A stretch of 54,979 nucleotides of DNA from Candidatus Fimimonas merdipullorum. Its GTDB lineage: Bacteria; Bacillota; Clostridia; Christensenellales; CAG-314. The stretch is taken from contig DVOC01000065.1 in NCBI GenBank assembly GCA_018713905.1, positions 1 to 54,979 on the forward strand. The letters are read 5' to 3'. A program made the position numbers and the translations under genes. Shown here one piece after another: positions 31,270 to 51,079 of this stretch (the stretch's first letter is position 1; the number at the start of each line of letters is the position of its first letter). The notes beneath the pieces were generated by a model. That model had not been told where the DNA came from. It did not search any database and saw only the letters and a program-made list of their open reading frames with translations.

Positions 31270-31424
31270 AAAAAACGGCTTGCCGCGTGGGACAAGACCG
31301 GTTTGCACTCCATTCCTTTCGCCGTCCCATCTTTCAGGGTGATTGCCCTGCGGAAATTAGCACCTAACGGTATTTTAGGTTGCTGTGACTTCATCGAGTC
31401 CGTCTCTCTGTCACTCTCGATAGG
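31270..31424 (-). promoter_or_regulatory. SAM-I (S-box) riboswitch with terminator expression platform, leader of metK
   Basis: Minus-strand RNA CCUAUCGAGAGUGACAGAGAGACGGACUCGAUGAAGUCACAGCAACCUAA..UUAGGUGCUAAUUUCCGCAGGG..CCCUGAAAGAUGGGA (31424-31325) has the P1-P4 layout and conserved AUGAA / GCAACC / GGUGCUAAUU / GAAAGAU blocks. A CGGUCUUGUCC-CACGC-GGCAAGCCG hairpin plus UUUUUU lies at 31301-31270. Confidence 0.8.
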
Positions 31425-31435
31425 TTATTGCCCAT

Positions 31436-31464: not shown

Positions 31465-31606
31465 CTCACCTTGCCGCACCTTGCCGGTGGGGCGAGTAGC
31501 GCACCTTGCCGGTGGGGCGACCGACGTATCTGCTTGTGGCTGACGTTTATGCTATCGGCTTGAATGCGCTTTCGTGAAACATACGGCATTTGTGGCTGAC
31601 GTTCGT
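31459..31606 (-). repeat. Array R2 of the modular repeat family (about 1.5 units, inverted orientation)
   Basis: Contains caccttgccgcaccttgccggtggggcgagtagcgcaccttgccggtggggcgaccgacgtatctgcttgtggctgacgtttatgctatcggctt, the reverse complement of the unit seen in R3 and R4. Confidence 0.8.
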
Positions 31607-37514: not shown

Positions 37515-39257
37515 TTACGCTTTGAAGTCCGATATATAGGCGGCTATCTGTTCTGCCGTAAGTCCGTTACGGGCAAGCAACTCGTCGGGGATAAAATCTC
37601 CGAAGAAGGATTTTTCCAGACCGAAGTTTTTGACCTTGACGTCTTTGTCCCCCAGCAGGGACGCCACCTTTTGCCCGTAGCCGCCGTCCAGAATACCCTC
37701 CTCGACGGTGACGATGAGGCTGTGCGTTTCAGCAAGCTCGTTAAGCAGTTTTTCGTCCACCGACGTGAGGCATACGGGGTTTACCAGAGTGGCGTGCACA
37801 CCCTTTTGCGCCAACAGCTCCGCCGCCTGCTCCGCCGTGCGGTACATACTGCCGACGGCAAGAATGGCTACTCCGCTGCCTTTTTTTGTCACCACGCTGC
37901 GCTGTGCCGAATAGTCCGTCGCCACAAAGCTGCCGTGATAAACCTTGGCGGGTACGCGAATCGCCACCGAACGCTGCGTCTGATCTATCGCCCAGTCCAG
38001 CATGGCAAGGTATTCCTCGACGCAGGTGGGGGCAAGATACAGCAAGTTGGGAATGTTGGAAAGCTCCGCCACGTCGTAAAGTCCGTTGTGCGTCGCACCG
38101 CCCATACCGTAGACGCTGTCCCAGAAGGACAAAATTACGGCGGGGTTGTTGTCTAATGCCAGATCCTGATGCAGTTGATCGAAGCTGCGCTGCAAAAAGG
38201 AGCCGAACACGGCGTAGACGGGTTTTGCCCCGCCCTTTGCCGCGCCTGAGGCAAAAGCCACGGCGTGCTCCTCCGCAATGCCCACGTCCACAAAATTTTT
38301 GCCCATTGCCTCGCGACGAGGAGCGTCCAACGCCAGCACGGCGGGAGTGCCCGACGAAATGACGAACACGCTTTTGTCCGACGCTATTTTGTTTTGCAAA
38401 TAATCTCTCGTTATGGAGTTGTAGCTTTCCTCGGGGGCTTTGAGCATTTCTCCCGTCTGCAAGCAGAAGGGCCCGCAGGAGTGGAATTTTTCCGTATTCT
38501 GCTCGGCGGGAGGGTAGCCCTTGCCCTTTTGAGTGTGCAGGTGAACCGCCACGGGGCGAGAGCAGTCCTTTATCTTGCGGAAAAGGTTGACCAGCCTGTT
38601 GACGTCGTTGCCCTCTTCCTCGTAGAGGTAGTCCAGCCCCAAAGCCAAAAACATATTATGCTTGGCTTTGCCCTTTGTGCGGCGCAGCTCGCCAAGGTTT
38701 TTGGCGTAGCCGCCGTGATTTTCCGCAATGGACATTTCGTTGTCGTTGATGACGGCGATAAAGTTTGTGCCCTGCTCGGCAATATTGTTAAGTCCCTCGT
38801 ACGCCTCGCCTCCGGAAAGGGAGCCGTCCCCCACCACAGCCACCACGTTGTGTTTTTGCCCCAACAGGTCGCGCGCCTTTGCCAGCCCGCAGGCAAGGGA
38901 AAGGGCGGTGGAGGTGTGCCCCACCGTGAACAGGTCGTACGCACTTTCCGACGGATTGGTAAAGCCGTTGGCCTGACCGTAGCACTGCTCGTACAAAAAA
39001 GCCTGCTTGCGCCCCGTGAGCATTTTGTGGGTGTAGCACTGATGAGAAACGTCGAATACTATTTTGTCCTGCGGGGCGTCGAAAACGTAGTGAAGCGCCA
39101 CCGTCAGCTCCACCGCACCGAGGTTGGGACCGGCATGACCGCCCTTTTTGCTCAGCCTTTGCAACAGAGCCGTGCGAATTTCCTCGCACAACGACGGAAG
39201 ATCCTTGCGACGCAGTTTTTTGACATCCTTCGGACTGTTTATTTTTTCCAGAAACAT
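37515..39257 (-). CDS. dxs: 1-deoxy-D-xylulose-5-phosphate synthase family protein (short, 580 aa)
   Basis: GGHAGPNLGAVELTVALHYVF, VGHTSTALSLACGLA and the ThDP motif VGDGSLSGGEAYEGLNN. It is somewhat shorter than canonical DXS, so a DXS-like transketolase paralogue cannot be excluded. Confidence 0.75.
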   Translation of the reverse strand: MFLEKINSPKDVKKLRRKDLPSLCEEIRTALLQRLSKKGGHAGPNLGAVELTVALHYVFDAPQDKIVFDVSHQCYTHKMLTGRKQAFLYEQCYGQANGFTNPSESAYDLFTVGHTSTALSLACGLAKARDLLGQKHNVVAVVGDGSLSGGEAYEGLNNIAEQGTNFIAVINDNEMSIAENHGGYAKNLGELRRTKGKAKHNMFLALGLDYLYEEEGNDVNRLVNLFRKIKDCSRPVAVHLHTQKGKGYPPAEQNTEKFHSCGPFCLQTGEMLKAPEESYNSITRDYLQNKIASDKSVFVISSGTPAVLALDAPRREAMGKNFVDVGIAEEHAVAFASGAAKGGAKPVYAVFGSFLQRSFDQLHQDLALDNNPAVILSFWDSVYGMGGATHNGLYDVAELSNIPNLLYLAPTCVEEYLAMLDWAIDQTQRSVAIRVPAKVYHGSFVATDYSAQRSVVTKKGSGVAILAVGSMYRTAEQAAELLAQKGVHATLVNPVCLTSVDEKLLNELAETHSLIVTVEEGILDGGYGQKVASLLGDKDVKVKNFGLEKSFFGDFIPDELLARNGLTAEQIAAYISDFKA

Positions 39258-39700: not shown

Positions 39701-39732
39701 AAAAAAAAGCAGGTTCCGTTGCGAACCTGCTT
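39701..39732 (-). terminator. Rho-independent terminator of the feo operon
   Basis: AGCAGGTTC-GCAAC-GGAACCTGCT hairpin (minus-strand reading) followed by TTTTTTTT, 8 nt after the stop of the Cys-rich ORF. Confidence 0.7.
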
Positions 39733-39739
39733 TAACGTT

Positions 39740-39895
39740 TTATTTCTTTTTTGCCTTGCTGCACGCCGAACAGGCGGCGCAGGAAGCGCAGTCGCAGCTG
39801 CAACCCCCTTTGCGCCTGCGTATGACGGCGGCGGCTATTGCTCCCGCCACCACGGCCACGCAGCATACTATGAGTATTATTTCCGCTGCTCCCAT
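39740..39895 (-). CDS. FeoB-associated Cys-rich small membrane protein (51 aa)
   Basis: MGAAEIILIVCCVAVVAGAIAAAVIRRRKGGCSCDCASCAACSACSKAKKK: one TM helix plus a C-terminal Cys cluster. The ATG overlaps the feoB stop (TAATG). The ORF-track model 39740..39997 is N-terminally over-extended. Confidence 0.7.
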   Translation of the reverse strand: MGAAEIILIVCCVAVVAGAIAAAVIRRRKGGCSCDCASCAACSACSKAKKK

Positions 39896-42207
39896 TATGC
39901 GTAAACCTCCCTTTTGACTGCTTTTTTGTTGCGTAACACTATCACGGCGGTCACTGCGGCGGCGACAGCCAGCCATATGAAGCAGCTCCACCACCACGTG
40001 CCGACGGTGTACACCGCCGTAGCCACAACGTAGCTTGCCGCCAGCCAGAACAGCAGCGTCATGTGATAGCGCTTTTTGCTTTGTAATTCCGCGCCTGCCG
40101 TGCCCACCGCCGCAAAGCAGGGAATGGTGGTCATGTTGAAGGCAATGAAGGAAATGAGCGCGGGTACGGAAATGCCTGTGGCAAGTATCATTGCCTGCAC
40201 CGCGTCTACGCCGTCGGCGGCGGACACGTCCAGACCGCCCAATTCCAGCCCTGCGACCTTAACAAGGCACAGCGCAAGCGTTCCGAAGGTGGCAATGACG
40301 TTTTCCTTGGCGATAAGCCCCGCCACCACCGCCACGCCGAACACCCAGCCGTAGGCGCCCAGCTGACTGCCGAAGCCCATAGGGGTAAACAGCGGCTGCA
40401 CAAGGCTGCTGATCCCTGCCAGAATGCTTTGGTTGACGTCCTCGTCGGCAAGCAGTTGCCAATTGAAAGTGAAGTGGGTAAGCACCCAGATGACTATGGT
40501 GGAGGCAAGAATTATGGTAAACGCCTTTTTAACAAAGTGCTTTGTCTTGTCCCACAGGTGCAGCATAAGGTTTTTGAACTGCGGCGCATGGTAGGCAGGC
40601 AGTTCCATTATGAAGGGAGGCGTTTCCCCCTTCAAAGAGGTGCTGCGCATAAGCAATACCGAAACTATTGCCGTAACTATGCCCAACAGATACATTCCGT
40701 AGGTGATAAGGTCGGCGTTGCCTATACCGAAAAACGCCACTATCGCCCCCGCAACCGCCGTAAGAATGGGCAGCTTTGCCCCGCAGGAGAAGAAGGGGAT
40801 CACCCTTATGGTCGCCGTGCGTTCCTTTTCGTCTGCAAGAGTGCGGGTGTTTATCATAGCGGGTACGGAGCAGCCGAAGCCCATTATCATGGGCATGAAG
40901 GCTCTGCCGGAAAGCCCGAAGCGGCGGAATACCCTGTCCAGAATGAAGGCGATACGCGCCATGTAGCCGCTGTCTTCCAAAATGGAGAAGAACAAAAACA
41001 GCACGAGTATGGGAGGCAGGAAGGACAGCACCGAGCCTAAGCCGTCAATTATACCGCTGTTGATAAGCCCTATTGCCCAATCTTCCATACCGCTGTTTTC
41101 CACCACGCCCTGCAACGCTCCCAGAGCCTCGCCCACCAGCATATCGTTCCAGATATTGTTGATGATTACGCCGGGCGAATACACCACGCCGTCGTAGAGA
41201 CAGGCAAGCCATCTGACGCCGTAGCTTATCGGCTCTCCTTCCGAATCCAGCAGTCCCAGCGTTTCCAGCGTGGGCAGGTTGAATATGCTGCCCAGATACA
41301 AAAAGTTTTCGCTGAAAGTAAGGTGGAACACGGCGAACAGTATCACCAGAAATATGGGAATACCCCATATTTTGTGAGTCAGCACCTTGTCAGCCCTGTC
41401 GGAAGCAGTCGTCTGAAACTTTTGCTGCGACTTGCGCTTTAAGGCGCTTTTGAAGTTGTCGGCTATGTACCTGTAACGCGCGTCCGCCACCAGAGCCTCG
41501 TAGTCGGAGCCGAACGCCGAATGGGGGTGCGCCTGCTGAAATTCCTCTACCATGGCAAGAAGCGAAGGGTGCTCCTTTGTTTCCAGCTCGTCCTTTTCCA
41601 CAAGCTTTACGGCGTGGAACAGCGGGTTGGGCACGTTTTGCCCTTTGAGCGCAATGGTGACGTCCTTGATGAGGTGCGAGAGCTCCGTGTGGGAAAGCAC
41701 CGTGCTGCCAGTGCGCGGACGGCTGCAATATTCGTAGGCGCGGTTCATCAGCTCCGCAAGGCCTTCGCCTTTCAAGGCGGAAATTCTTACGACAGGCACG
41801 CCCAGCGCCTTTTCCAGCTTTTTGTCCTCTATCTCGTCGCCGTTTTTGGTAAGGGCGTCCATCATGTTGAGCGCCACCACTACCGGTACGTCCAGCTCCA
41901 GCAGCTGCGTGGTGAGATACAGGTTGCGTTCCAGATTGGTAACGTCCACCACGTTGATGACGCAGTCGGGCTTTTCGTTGAGCAGATATCCGCGGGCGAT
42001 GACTTCCTCGTCGGTGTAGGGGGAAAGAGAATATATTCCCGGCAAATCTACTACGGAAACGGGCTTAGCGCACTTTTTGTACGTTCCTTCGCGCTTGTCT
42101 ACCGTTACTCCCGGCCAGTTGCCCACGTGCGCCGTAGAGCCTGTAAGGCTGTTGAACAGCGTGGTTTTGCCGCAGTTGGGATTGCCCGCCAATGCAAATT
42201 TAATCAT
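39895..42207 (-). CDS. feoB: Ferrous iron transporter FeoB
   Basis: N-terminal G domain GNPNCGKTTLFNSLTG...VDLPGIYSL and a C-terminal polytopic permease; 770 aa. Confidence 0.95.
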   Translation of the reverse strand: MIKFALAGNPNCGKTTLFNSLTGSTAHVGNWPGVTVDKREGTYKKCAKPVSVVDLPGIYSLSPYTDEEVIARGYLLNEKPDCVINVVDVTNLERNLYLTTQLLELDVPVVVALNMMDALTKNGDEIEDKKLEKALGVPVVRISALKGEGLAELMNRAYEYCSRPRTGSTVLSHTELSHLIKDVTIALKGQNVPNPLFHAVKLVEKDELETKEHPSLLAMVEEFQQAHPHSAFGSDYEALVADARYRYIADNFKSALKRKSQQKFQTTASDRADKVLTHKIWGIPIFLVILFAVFHLTFSENFLYLGSIFNLPTLETLGLLDSEGEPISYGVRWLACLYDGVVYSPGVIINNIWNDMLVGEALGALQGVVENSGMEDWAIGLINSGIIDGLGSVLSFLPPILVLFLFFSILEDSGYMARIAFILDRVFRRFGLSGRAFMPMIMGFGCSVPAMINTRTLADEKERTATIRVIPFFSCGAKLPILTAVAGAIVAFFGIGNADLITYGMYLLGIVTAIVSVLLMRSTSLKGETPPFIMELPAYHAPQFKNLMLHLWDKTKHFVKKAFTIILASTIVIWVLTHFTFNWQLLADEDVNQSILAGISSLVQPLFTPMGFGSQLGAYGWVFGVAVVAGLIAKENVIATFGTLALCLVKVAGLELGGLDVSAADGVDAVQAMILATGISVPALISFIAFNMTTIPCFAAVGTAGAELQSKKRYHMTLLFWLAASYVVATAVYTVGTWWWSCFIWLAVAAAVTAVIVLRNKKAVKREVYA

Positions 42208-42433
42208 TTTTCACCTCCATGGTTATGCAAGCCGCCTCCGTCTTGCGCAAGGTAAGCTCGTAGCCTCTTACCGTCACTTCCAGCGGATCGCCCAGAGGCG
42301 CTTTTTTGCGAAGCAGAATTTCCGCACCGGGCGTTATGCCCATGTCGAAAAGTCTGCGCCTGATTTTGTTTTCGCCGTCTACCGCAGTCACTACCCCGTG
42401 ACTGCCCACGGCAAACTTGTCTAACGTTGTCAT
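42200..42433 (-). CDS. feoA: FeoA family protein (copy 2, proximal to feoB)
   Basis: 77 aa SH3-like FeoA pattern (RRLFDMGITPGAEILLRKKAPLGDPLEVTVRGYELTLRKTEAACI). AAGGAGA RBS. Overlaps the feoB start by 8 nt. Confidence 0.9.
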   Translation of the reverse strand: MTTLDKFAVGSHGVVTAVDGENKIRRRLFDMGITPGAEILLRKKAPLGDPLEVTVRGYELTLRKTEAACITMEVKND

Positions 42434-42490
42434 AGTAGTCTCCTTTTAGTTGTATTAAAGGGCTTGCGCCCTGTTAATCGTTGTGTAACG

Positions 42491-42772
42491 GCACCTGCAA
42501 ATACATTTGAAGCCGACGACAAAAACGTCAGGCATAGGCATATACGCCAGTCGCCCCACCGGCAAGGTGCCACACCGGCAAATACATTTGAAGCCGACGA
42601 CAAAAACGTCAGGCATAGGCATATACGCCGGTCGCCCCACCGGCTAGGTGGCCTCACCGGCTAGGTGCGCCGGCAAAACAACTTAAAGCCGATAGCGTAA
42701 ACGTCGGCAACAAGCATATACGCCACTCGCCCCACCGGCAAGGTGGCCTCACCGGCTAGGTGCGGCAAGGTG
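42491..42772 (+). repeat. Array R3 of the modular repeat family (3 units, 81-95 bp) inside the feo operon
   Basis: Unit starts at 42497, 42578 and 42673 (GCAAAtACAtTTgAAGCCGAcgaCaAAAACGTCaGGCAtAgGCATATACGCCnGTCGCCCCACCGGCAAGGTG plus extra CCTCACCGGCTAGGTG mini-repeats). The first two units are nearly identical. Confidence 0.85.
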
Positions 42773-42977
42773 TGACGAATATTTTGCTGCACAGCTGTCC
42801 GTCCAAAGCCAGCTTGACGCCCTTTACAACGCACACCACGCTGCTGCCCGAGGACACCACCGTCAGCTGCGAATTGAGGGCAATGCCCAGACTTTCCAGA
42901 TAGGTTTTGGTTTTGCCCTCTACCGCCAGCCTGATCACTTTCAAAGTTATTCCCGTGGGTGCTACCGTTAACGGCAT
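42756..42977 (-). CDS. feoA: FeoA family protein (copy 1); last 5 codons and stop lie in repeat array R3
   Basis: 73 aa FeoA-like (LKVIRLAVEGKTKTYLESLGIALNSQLTVVSSGSSVVCVVKGVKLALDGQLCSKIFV). AAGGAGGAATC RBS. The C-terminal TPCRT and the TAG stop are encoded by 42756-42773. Confidence 0.8.
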   Translation of the reverse strand: MPLTVAPTGITLKVIRLAVEGKTKTYLESLGIALNSQLTVVSSGSSVVCVVKGVKLALDGQLCSKIFVTPCRT

Positions 42978-43019
42978 GATTCCTCCTTAAAATCCGAAAC
43001 ATTTTTCGCTTTCGCATTT

Positions 43020-43048
43020 ATGCTACCACCGCGAGAAAATTTTGTCAA
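43020..43048 (-). promoter_or_regulatory. Candidate feo operon promoter (TTGACA-17-TAGCAT)
   Basis: Minus strand: TTGACA (43048-43043), 17-nt spacer, TAGCAT (43025-43020). Confidence 0.4.
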
Positions 43049-43129
43049 ACAAAAATGCGAAACTTTTTTCATATTTTTCTTGTTTTTTTATGCCGCGAGG
43101 AAGCCCGCCGAAACAAAAGGAAAGAGCAT

Positions 43130-44395: not shown

Positions 44396-44910
44396 ACAAA
44401 ACAATTAAAGCCGATAGCGTAAACGCCCTGCACCTTCAAACACTTAAAGGCAAGGGCAACGATAGCCACCAGCACATATGCCCTTCAAAATACGTATAAA
44501 GCCGATAGCGTAAACGTCAGCCACCAACAAATACGCCAATCGCCCCACCGGCAAGGCGCGCCAGTCGCCCCACCGGCAAGGTGCGCTCGGCGCGTAGCCG
44601 CGGCAAAGTGAAACTCTTTTAGTGGAGAACTTAAACGTAAGCCACACACTCAAACGTCACTCGCCCCACCGGCAAGGTGCCACACCGGCAAGGTGCGCTC
44701 GGCGCGTAGCCGCGGCAAGGTGAAACTCTTTTAGTGGAGAACTCAAGCGTAAGCCACACACTCAAACGTCGCTCGCCCCACCGGCGAGGTGCCACACCGG
44801 CAAGGTGCGCCGGCAAAACAACTTAAAGCCGATAGCGTAAACGTCGGCAACAAGCATATACGCCACTCGCCTCGCCGGCAAGGCGCGCCAGTCGCCCCAC
44901 CGGCAAGGTG
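44396..44910 (+). repeat. Array R4 of the modular repeat family (5-6 units, includes a 112-bp tandem duplication)
   Basis: GTGCGCTCGGCGCGTAGCCGCGGCAAnGTGAAACTCTTTTAGTGGAGAACT...CTCGCCCCACCGGCnAGGTGCCACACCGGCAAG occurs at 44581 and again at 44693. The terminal unit 44805-44871 is identical to 42665-42731. Confidence 0.85.
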
Positions 44911-50804: not shown

Positions 50805-51079
50805 CTCACCTTGCCGCACCTTGCCGCACCTCGCCGGTGAGGCGAGTAGCGTATTTGCTTGTGCCTGACGTTTACGCTATCGGCTTCAAGTTGTTTTTTT
50901 TGTGAGACGCCTTGCCGCACCTTGCCGGTGGGGCACCTCGCCGGTGGGGCGACCGGCGTATTTGCTTATGCCTGACGTTTACGCTATCGGCTTTAAGTTG
51001 CAGCATTCGCCCTGCAAGCACCGTCGGATTGTTGCCCCGCAAGCGCTTTTGACACAAAAACTCGCCACCGTATGCAAAA
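50799..51079 (-). repeat. Array R5 of the modular repeat family (2 units) plus an about 80-bp tail shared only with R6
   Basis: Two copies of gcctgacgtttacgctatcggcttnaagtt with caccttgcc/cacctcgcc mini-repeats. The tail 50997-51079 (ttgcagcattcgccctgcaagcaccgtcggattgttgccccgcaagcgcttttg...) recurs at 52998-53080. Confidence 0.85.

Follow-up and report, generated by a model that had tools for sequence, protein, structure and literature searches.

A dispersed direct-repeat array within the feo operon of “Candidatus Fimimonas merdipullorum” supplies the end of the first feoA gene

The window analyzed here is a whole stretch of 54,979 nucleotides from “Candidatus Fimimonas merdipullorum” (assembly GCA_018713905.1, contig DVOC01000065.1, positions 1 to 54,979 of the forward strand), and the source genome is a metagenome-assembled genome (MAG) of 1.3 Mb in 103 contigs, 91% complete. 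Its minus strand carries a feo operon with two feoA genes (feoA-1 and feoA-2), feoB, and a short gene for a Cys-rich membrane protein, adjoined by a divergent TetR regulator identified with Pfam (Table 1). This arrangement of TetR facing away from feoA-feoA-feoB is kept in the genus, in more than 30 relatives, and a mosaic repeat array lies inside the unit, between feoA-1 and the ribosome-binding site (RBS) of feoA-2. An initial annotation, made from the letters of the window alone, had described the array as consisting of three units, and the repeat search, Tandem Repeats Finder, and a motif count all confirmed it; the RBS, a small hairpin (AGGGC/GCCCT, 42459-42472), and the final codons of feoA-1 were likewise read from the sequence at the positions it had given.

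The repeat search returned three in-register direct copies (42494-42588, 42575-42669, and 42670-42764, spaced 81 and 95 nt apart) with 81% identity to the reference copy, while Tandem Repeats Finder reported 42492-42661 with a period of 81. The core motif of the array, CCACCGGCAAGGTG, occurs 25 times in the window when up to two mismatches are allowed, against 0.47 expected, and none of 100 shuffles reached that number. Five of these copies sit in the feo array, all in + orientation, so that the feo transcript would carry their reverse complement. Motif orientation is uniform inside every array in all 11 strains described below. The earlier suggestion that the feo array is read antisense relative to the other arrays stands as far as motif orientation goes; most of the other arrays lie upstream of promoters, and no preferred transcribed strand is evident. 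Throughout the source genome there are 77 copies of the core motif in 13 clusters, and the family is scattered in the genus, with 57 copies in G052, 9 in G047, 6 in G045, 5 in G011, and 4 in G042.

One of these clusters is a neighboring array only 2.1 kb away, and a segment of the feo array (42663-42731) is identical to it over 69 nt (44803-44871), which points to a recent exchange between the two. The arrays also carry private variants. The CTAGG form of the motif, which reads TAG in the feo sense, makes up 3 of 6 feo-array copies versus 0 of the 71 other copies of the genome (P = 3e-4); its three genomic occurrences are thus all in the feo array (42640, 42657, and 42752). Among the strains, which are not independent of one another, it was found in 21 of 48 copies in the feo array versus 1 of 39 in the neighboring array (P = 4e-6). 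Conversely, CTCGG is private to the neighboring array (44545-44910; 9 of 39 copies versus 0 of 48). Locus-specific concerted evolution, or homogenization, accounts for both patterns. Selection for stop codons need not be invoked for CTAGG, given that the neighboring array has a private variant of its own and that in some alleles CTAG is read in another frame as Pro-Ser.

To follow the array through the species, we collected ten long contigs (55 to 751 kb, from different studies) by an exact look-up of FeoA-2, a protein listed by 261 blocks of the sequence collection, which together with the source gave 11 strains. In all 11 the array occupies the same site with fixed borders, ...TTCGTCA on one side and CCGTTAYACAACGATTAAC... 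on the other, and its length is 184, 280, 281, 344, 371, 374, 378, 429, 451, 558, or 627 nt, with at least five filler modules combined in different ways. Fixation of the array in the species goes together with a reshuffling that reaches the protein, as FeoA-1 ends in three kinds of tail, TPCRT (73 aa), TPC(R/H)DCASSAP(C/S)R (81 aa), and TPCRDCASSDVVCLFGK (85 aa), present among the cluster members listed on at least 80, 29, and 101 contigs, respectively. The two longer alleles add Cys-Arg-Asp-Cys (CxxC) and further cysteines beside the native Cys71. No allele with the native stop or with an empty site appeared among the FeoA-1 variants read, which come from more than 200 contigs. Each tail occurs with both states of a V50L substitution in the core; the tails must therefore change faster than nearby single-nucleotide polymorphisms (SNPs) or recombine with them. 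The genes themselves are under strong purifying selection, with pN/pS values (nonsynonymous to synonymous polymorphism) of 0.04 for the 68-codon core of feoA-1, 0.004 for feoA-2, and 0.055 for feoB among the 11 strains, indicating that all three are in use whatever the array structure. The Cys-rich gene of 51 aa was called in 10 of 10 strain contigs.

Table 1. Features of the feo operon and its repeat array (positions in the window)
Feature	Position	Strand	Evidence or remark
Mosaic repeat array	42494..42772	+ (all motifs)	Three units, then terminal 10-mer; repeat search and Tandem Repeats Finder
Array unit 1	42494-42574	+	81 nt
Array unit 2	42575-42669	+	95 nt
Array unit 3	42670-42764	+	95 nt
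Terminal 10-mer CGGCAAGGTG	42763-42772	+	Same mini-repeat ends the arrays at 31467-31486 and 50807-50836
Weak terminator-like hairpin, unit 1 (GGCGTATATGCCTATGCC then TGACGTTTTT)	42531..42548	minus	6 pairs, 3 G-C
Same weak terminator-like hairpin, unit 2	42612..42629	minus	Terminator scan
feoA-1	42756-42977	minus	73 aa; Pfam FeoA (PF04023), 4e-9, 36.9 bits versus cutoff of 23
Probable native coding part of feoA-1, Met1-Cys71, ...KIFVTPC	42765..42977	minus	Pfam match to residues 1-70; sister species KIFVTPC-TGA
Array-derived end of feoA-1, CGC ACC TAG (Arg72, Thr73, stop)	42756..42764	minus	TAG from the CTAGG motif variant
Unique spacer from array to conserved stem-loop	42479..42493	minus	Part of a 58-nt flank identical in 11 strains save one C/T SNP
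Intercistronic stem-loop AUUAA-C-AGGGC GCAA GCCCU-UUAAU, then invariant AUACAA (42450-42455)	42450..42478	minus	-10.7 kcal/mol
feoA-2 RBS AAGGAGA	42439-42445	minus	Read from sequence; kept in relatives
feoA-2	42200-42433	minus	Pfam FeoA, 4.8e-21
feoB	39895-42207	minus	Pfam FeoB_N 6.4e-67, Gate, FeoB_C
FeoB-associated Cys-rich small membrane protein, 51 aa	39740..39895	minus	Pfam PF12669, weak, 0.0043
Predicted feo promoter TTGACA, 17-nt spacer, TAGCAT, TG before -10	43020..43048	minus	Consensus match only
Strong intrinsic terminator at operon end	39706..39733	minus	11-bp stem, then TTTTTT; scan

On the minus strand, feoA-1 ends ...AAA ATA TTC GTC ACA CCT TGC CGC ACC TAG. The initial annotation had let the FeoA-like sequence end at SKIFV and assigned TPCRT with its stop to the array, the native stop apparently having been replaced. 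That the native stop is lost agrees with a comparison of about 90 genomes (19 + 9 + 2 congeners and about 60 further relatives), where FeoA-1 orthologues stop 1 to 5 residues past K(I/V)FV, most of them after one (the usual form has 70 aa and ends KIFVA), while every strain here runs into the array. The boundary lies elsewhere than proposed, as residue 70 is still within the Pfam match and KIFVTPC is the ending in the sister species. This sister species, labeled “Ca. Fimimonas gallinarum” (G041), is free of the array; its feoA-1/feoA-2 gap is 77 nt, and its genome has zero copies of the motif. All 13 FeoA-1 protein variants read in it end KIFVTPC (the species was seen on several hundred contigs); they measure 69, 72, or 83 aa because their start codons were called differently. 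The codons there are ACG CCG TGT TGA versus ACA CCT TGC CGC here, differing at three third positions and at no first or second position, which reads as the signature of conserved coding sequence and not of a decaying footprint. In trees, G000 and G041 fall on the same side of the split, with support of 100/99 for FeoB and 83/84 for TetR. No genome with a FeoB more than 77% identical was found that could serve as a closer outgroup, and the only residual homology between the 77-nt spacer of the sister and the spacer here was a 7-nt TGCAGGT, which is not significant. The synonymous codons of the sister KIFVTPC, the tree split, and the Pfam match to residue 70 are the reasons why we infer that native FeoA-1 probably ended in ...VTPC-stop, with only Arg72, Thr73, and the TAG being new. 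Thus, only CGC ACC TAG is securely array derived, and TPC is common to the array-free sister. An array-free relative with the full TPCRT ending had been named beforehand as evidence against an array origin; what the sister shares is TPC, without RT.

The contrary possibility is that the whole tail came from the array, present in the common ancestor and lost by the sister, which would have kept a three-codon footprint under selection. The sequence CACCTTGCCG at the gene end equals, base for base, the mini-repeat that closes other arrays; the motif family, being scattered in the genus, may be old and often lost; and the other members of the subclade with an adjacent DXS paralogue end in AQQ, AA, or AVQ (the last in four species), with TPC found in G041. 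On these grounds the idea keeps some weight, but we consider it unlikely, since the sister genome lacks any copy of the motif and likeness at the DNA level comes cheaply here, with 5 of the 8 bases of CACCTTGC forced once the residues are T-P-C. Furthermore, the Pfam FeoA alignment extends through residue 70 and so covers Thr69 and Pro70, and a three-residue tail is the norm in the subclade (71 to 72 aa). Among the 13 clusters of the source genome, feoA-1 is the only convincing gene ending in an array; three further open reading frames (ORFs) overlap arrays but look spurious, being Arg rich and apparently antisense to real genes. A likeness between the array module CGACTGCGCGTCGAGCG and the Cys-rich gene was also considered and judged to be chance in GC-rich sequence (10 nt, GCGACTGCGC, in common).

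The same site is occupied differently in other species. Across about 30 congeners the gap between feoA-1 and feoA-2 ranges from 3 to 525 nt and holds unrelated fillers. In G047 (L033) it contains another dispersed element of ~125 nt, MITE-like, with inverted ends TTTGAGCG/CGCTCAAA and 27 matches elsewhere in the G047 genome at 75 to 84% identity. In L007 (G010) the 360-nt gap is a local tandem duplication, in which a segment made up of the final ~40 nt of feoA-1 and the stem-loop element (see below) is present three times. A 525-nt filler in G014 was rejected as a dispersed repeat because it is single copy in that genome. These gaps mark the spacer as a permissive insertion hot spot across the genus, and such tolerance makes it harder to argue that the array owes its place to selection for a function.

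The hairpin AGGGC/GCCCU, which had been noted between the array and the feoA-2 RBS, has that position but is not an appendage of the array, since it is conserved across the genus with covariation. It forms the inner part of a longer stem-loop (42454-42478), and at least 18 species of the genus have the same architecture of stem-loop, AUACAA, and RBS ahead of feoA-2. Its conserved outer stem reads GUUAA/UUUAA, the inner stems have divergent sequences, the loops vary from 3 to about 19 nt, and ATACAA is invariant across the species compared. Compensatory changes occur in 6 of the 9 pairs that RNAalifold gave on 18 species; 97.5% of the stem-loop cells were paired versus 86.4% in shuffles (none of 500 was as high) and 27 to 48% in slid controls, and the covariation score was 0.40 versus 0.18. 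The element is unique in the source genome and matches no Rfam family. Where the gap is minimal, as in L014 (66 nt), the element takes up the whole spacer; it is therefore ancestral, and the arrays and other fillers have come in between the feoA-1 stop and the stem-loop. It is a candidate for a new feo-specific cis-regulatory RNA motif, and our guess is that it has some role at the RNA level, as a leaky terminator, a processing site, or a translation element. Downstream it is followed by UUUAAUAC, in contrast to the operon end, where TTTTTT comes after an 11-bp stem.

Most likely, the feo operon is transcribed as one unit through the array. Our scans identified one promoter upstream of feoA-1 (its site identical in strains L025 and L029) and one strong terminator after the operon. 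About half of the roughly 60 measurable feoA-1/feoA-2 gaps in the wider family are shorter than 45 nt, which leaves no room for a terminator plus a promoter, and the ancestral state would therefore have been a single transcript. The scan of the + strand found no outward-facing promoter at the GGTG end of the array, and no antisense RNA against feoA-1 is predicted. The terminator-like sites of the array are weak and confined to the feo sense; each “filler A” unit has one, a hairpin of 6 pairs including G-U with a T-run that starts 5 nt past the stem.

Among known repeat systems, the closest analogues are the STAR-like direct-repeat arrays and the REPs found inside operons, and the array shows the ordinary behavior of dispersed bacterial repeats. 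To our knowledge, the motif CGCCCCACCGGCAAGGTG, from a Clostridia host, is unrelated to the staphylococcal STAR consensus. STAR elements of Staphylococcus aureus are described as interspersed intergenic direct repeats with a GC-rich motif and recurring spacers, at loci that are fixed within a species, not shared between species, expanding and contracting among strains, and carrying locus-specific variants (Purves et al. 2012, PMC3532100). Like them, the feo array alternates a direct GC-rich motif with recurring spacer modules in the 11 strains, is fixed in the species, varies in length from 184 to 627 nt between identical flanks, and has its own variant (CTAGG, with CTCGG in the neighboring array). 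However, it is unrelated in sequence, we do not claim membership on that ground, and it belongs to a host of another phylum; it is also placed within an operon, where it extends into the 3' end of a gene, a situation that the parts of PMC3532100 considered here do not describe.

REP and BIME elements occur between E. coli cistrons such as malE-malF and nrdAB (Higgins 1982/1988 and Liang et al. 2015, as cited in PMC12306157), with the potential to stabilize upstream mRNA and stall terminating ribosomes (PMC12306157). The feo array resembles REPs in being made of GC-rich hairpin-forming repeats between genes of one transcript, near the upstream stop codon, but its motifs are all direct instead of alternating as in BIMEs, and it supplies the stop codon itself instead of following it. 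The CCACC-GGCAA-GGTGG palindrome gives a stem of only 4 to 5 bp versus the imperfect GC-rich palindrome of 20 to 40 nt in REPs. No RAYT (Y1 transposase, PF01797) was matched in the source genome at its 91% completeness, while control genomes gave matches. An identity as REP/BIME fails on both the orientation and the missing RAYT.

The alteration of the terminus recalls the reading frames of MITE, ERIC, BOX, and REP2 elements fused to chromosomal ORFs (Delihas 2011, PMC3184786), in that a dispersed repeat at the end of feoA-1 adds repeat-encoded residues. Here, in contrast, the fusion is polymorphic, with three tail alleles at comparable frequency, and the gene is conserved and selected rather than a hypothetical ORF. 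A CRISPR array was rejected, as the “spacers” are a small set of recurring modules common to other arrays and not unique. MITEs such as the Neisseria Correia element are small nonautonomous repeats that land inside operons and are cotranscribed. The feo array is similarly a small repeat inside an operon, and the element of G047, with its terminal inverted repeats, occupies the same feo site; unlike a MITE, the array grows by tandem units, no inverted repeat brackets it, and its borders (GTCA/CACC and GGTG/CCGTTA) lack a target-site duplication. Rfam gave no family at the gathering threshold in or near the array, the best score within 42380-43100 being 22 bits versus 42.5.

Considered together, these observations make it quite probable that the array is a passenger, a STAR-like mosaic of dispersed direct repeats in a permissive spacer, and that the operon is still one transcript. 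Under this scenario, a copy of the dispersed repeat family of the species would have entered the insertion-tolerant spacer that separates feoA-1 from feoA-2, fusing with feoA-1 at, or directly past, the native ...Val-Thr-Pro-Cys. A microhomology junction is plausible, as ACA CCT TGC resembles the motif CACCTTGCC. The junction would have removed the native stop, leaving ribosomes to add 2, 10, or 14 codons up to the first in-frame stop of the adjoining module. Unequal recombination and gene conversion, among units and with the neighboring array, would then reshuffle the array in each strain, the change of tail allele being a by-product. Transcription would start at the promoter ahead of feoA-1, cross the array, and end at the terminator past the Cys-rich gene, and translation of feoA-2 would use the stem-loop and RBS that it has preserved. 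The consequences for expression, if any, would probably be modest, such as weak attenuation, protection of the 3' end of the feoA-1 mRNA, or stalling at a stop codon buried in a hairpin.

Several points weigh against this interpretation. The strain arrays come from metagenome assemblies, which can misassemble tandem repeats, although similar array structures recur in independent samples (the source and L024; L026 and L027). Because the 10-mer that spans the codons for Pro and Cys is identical to the mini-repeat closing other arrays, the junction cannot be placed to the base, and TPC could, in principle, be array derived. The folding of the feo-sense RNA, modeled as unusually good, leaves room for a real effect at the RNA level. 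A near-promoter that overlaps the stem-loop (TTAACA, 17 nt, TACAAC) was missed by the scan because of a single base, the final one of the -10 box. Finally, read-through, attenuation, and processing are all deduced from sequence.

The folding and the position of the stop codon give the array some claim to being a selected cis-regulatory module, similar to a REP in an operon, in which attenuation, mRNA protection, and stalling set the ratio of FeoA-1 to FeoA-2/FeoB and reshuffling tunes it. The predicted free energy of the feo-sense RNA at 42434-42790 is -148.9 kcal/mol (z = -4.4) versus -126.1 kcal/mol (z = -2.1) for the opposite strand, and the weak hairpin with its T-run is present in each filler A unit in the feo sense only. 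In the predicted fold, the TAG sits in the loop of CACC-UAGCC-GGUG with a strong stem directly after it, an arrangement that, as a hypothesis, could stall terminating ribosomes because REPs within 15 nt of a stop codon do so (PMC12306157). In E. coli such REPs also lower translation and occur between cistrons (PMC12306157). Besides, the array is fixed in the species, the empty allele being absent from the same >200 contigs. Yet its length and modules vary more than threefold between strains whose genes are conserved, unlike a tuned element. The terminator-like sites are no commoner than in shuffles (3 in the region versus 2.0, standard deviation 1.7), other species have unrelated filler or almost nothing at the site, and the sister species does without the array altogether. 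A selected module is therefore, in our judgment, improbable, although it deserves to be kept in mind.

Somewhat more doubtful is a promoter of feoA-2 and feoB located downstream of the array, with the stem-loop as the terminator of feoA-1, ATACAA(T) as the -10 box, and the array confined to a 3' untranslated region. Besides the TTAACA, 17 nt, TACAAC arrangement present here, the closest subclade has TTGTTT or TTAATA, 17 to 19 nt, and TACAAT; 6 of the 18 species have TGATACAAT, the extended -10 form; and a U-rich stretch follows the stem-loop. Nevertheless, the distance between the putative -35 and -10 boxes ranges across species from 17 to about 32 nt, following the length of the loop; the distance to GGTT is also variable; and conservation stops at ATACAA itself, the next position, where a -10 box would have its critical last T, being T, A, or C. 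In the source genome TACAAC is just 3 nt away from the Shine-Dalgarno sequence, so that the transcript would start inside the RBS. For three strains (the source window, L025, and L029), the scan of the array and of the sequence after it found no sigma-70-like promoter in the feo sense, and the gaps of many relatives (3 to 45 nt) offer no room for one.

A bolder version makes the array an evolvable module for control and diversification of iron uptake, in which recombination alters the FeoA-1 tail and the number of weak attenuator hairpins together. The result would be heritable differences among strains in the chemistry of FeoA-1 and the dosage of FeoB, much as with a slow contingency locus, but we regard this as very unlikely. 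An artefact of short-read metagenome assembly, conceivable with units of 81 to 95 nt near the read length and a source MAG of 103 contigs, is hardly credible as the origin of the array or its variability, given that ten independent contigs from different studies carry it between identical flanks, that the differences lie in distinct modules and not in copy number alone, and that each tail allele recurs on dozens of contigs.

The array offers a clean population-scale case of a dispersed repeat tolerated in an essential-looking operon while rewriting a protein C terminus, and public metagenomes suffice to reconstruct its junction, the native end of the protein, and the three tail alleles that coexist in this uncultured chicken-gut Clostridia species. 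Two results may be reusable beyond it, the spacer between feoA-1 and feoA-2 as a recurrent landing site for unrelated repeats across the genus and the stem-loop with its invariant AUACAA before feoA-2 in many species, absent from Rfam. The strains form a natural series of arrays of 184 to 627 nt between identical flanks, suitable for testing attenuation of the transcript versus its stabilization.

Some other features of the region and its relatives deserve mention. A 13-nt inverted repeat (43010-43022/43050-43062, 92% complementary) flanks the predicted feo promoter in the TetR-feo divergent region and is a candidate operator, perhaps for the adjacent TetR; no Fur-box-like sequence was noticed there on passing inspection. 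The only Rfam match in the whole window, away from the feo array, is a SAM riboswitch (RF00162, 76.7 bits) at 31324-31426 on the minus strand, directly downstream of an array terminus that supplies the TTGACA -35 box. A second, distant feoA-feoB pair is located on contig C74 (C74:2588-4794), with 35% identity for FeoB and 46% for FeoA-2. The sister species is also labeled “Corallococcus sp. CAG:1435,” and its NCBI taxid 2840821 is placed in Myxococcota, apparently inherited from that label, while the record titles of its relatives read Clostridia/Christensenellaceae. Beside the feo operon, a DXS-like gene (37515-39257, minus strand) has full-length orthologues with 66 to 69% identity in only seven congeners, which were feo-adjacent in the four whose position was checked; most other congeners gave matches in two separate pieces (residues 3-195 and about 195-575) of lower identity.

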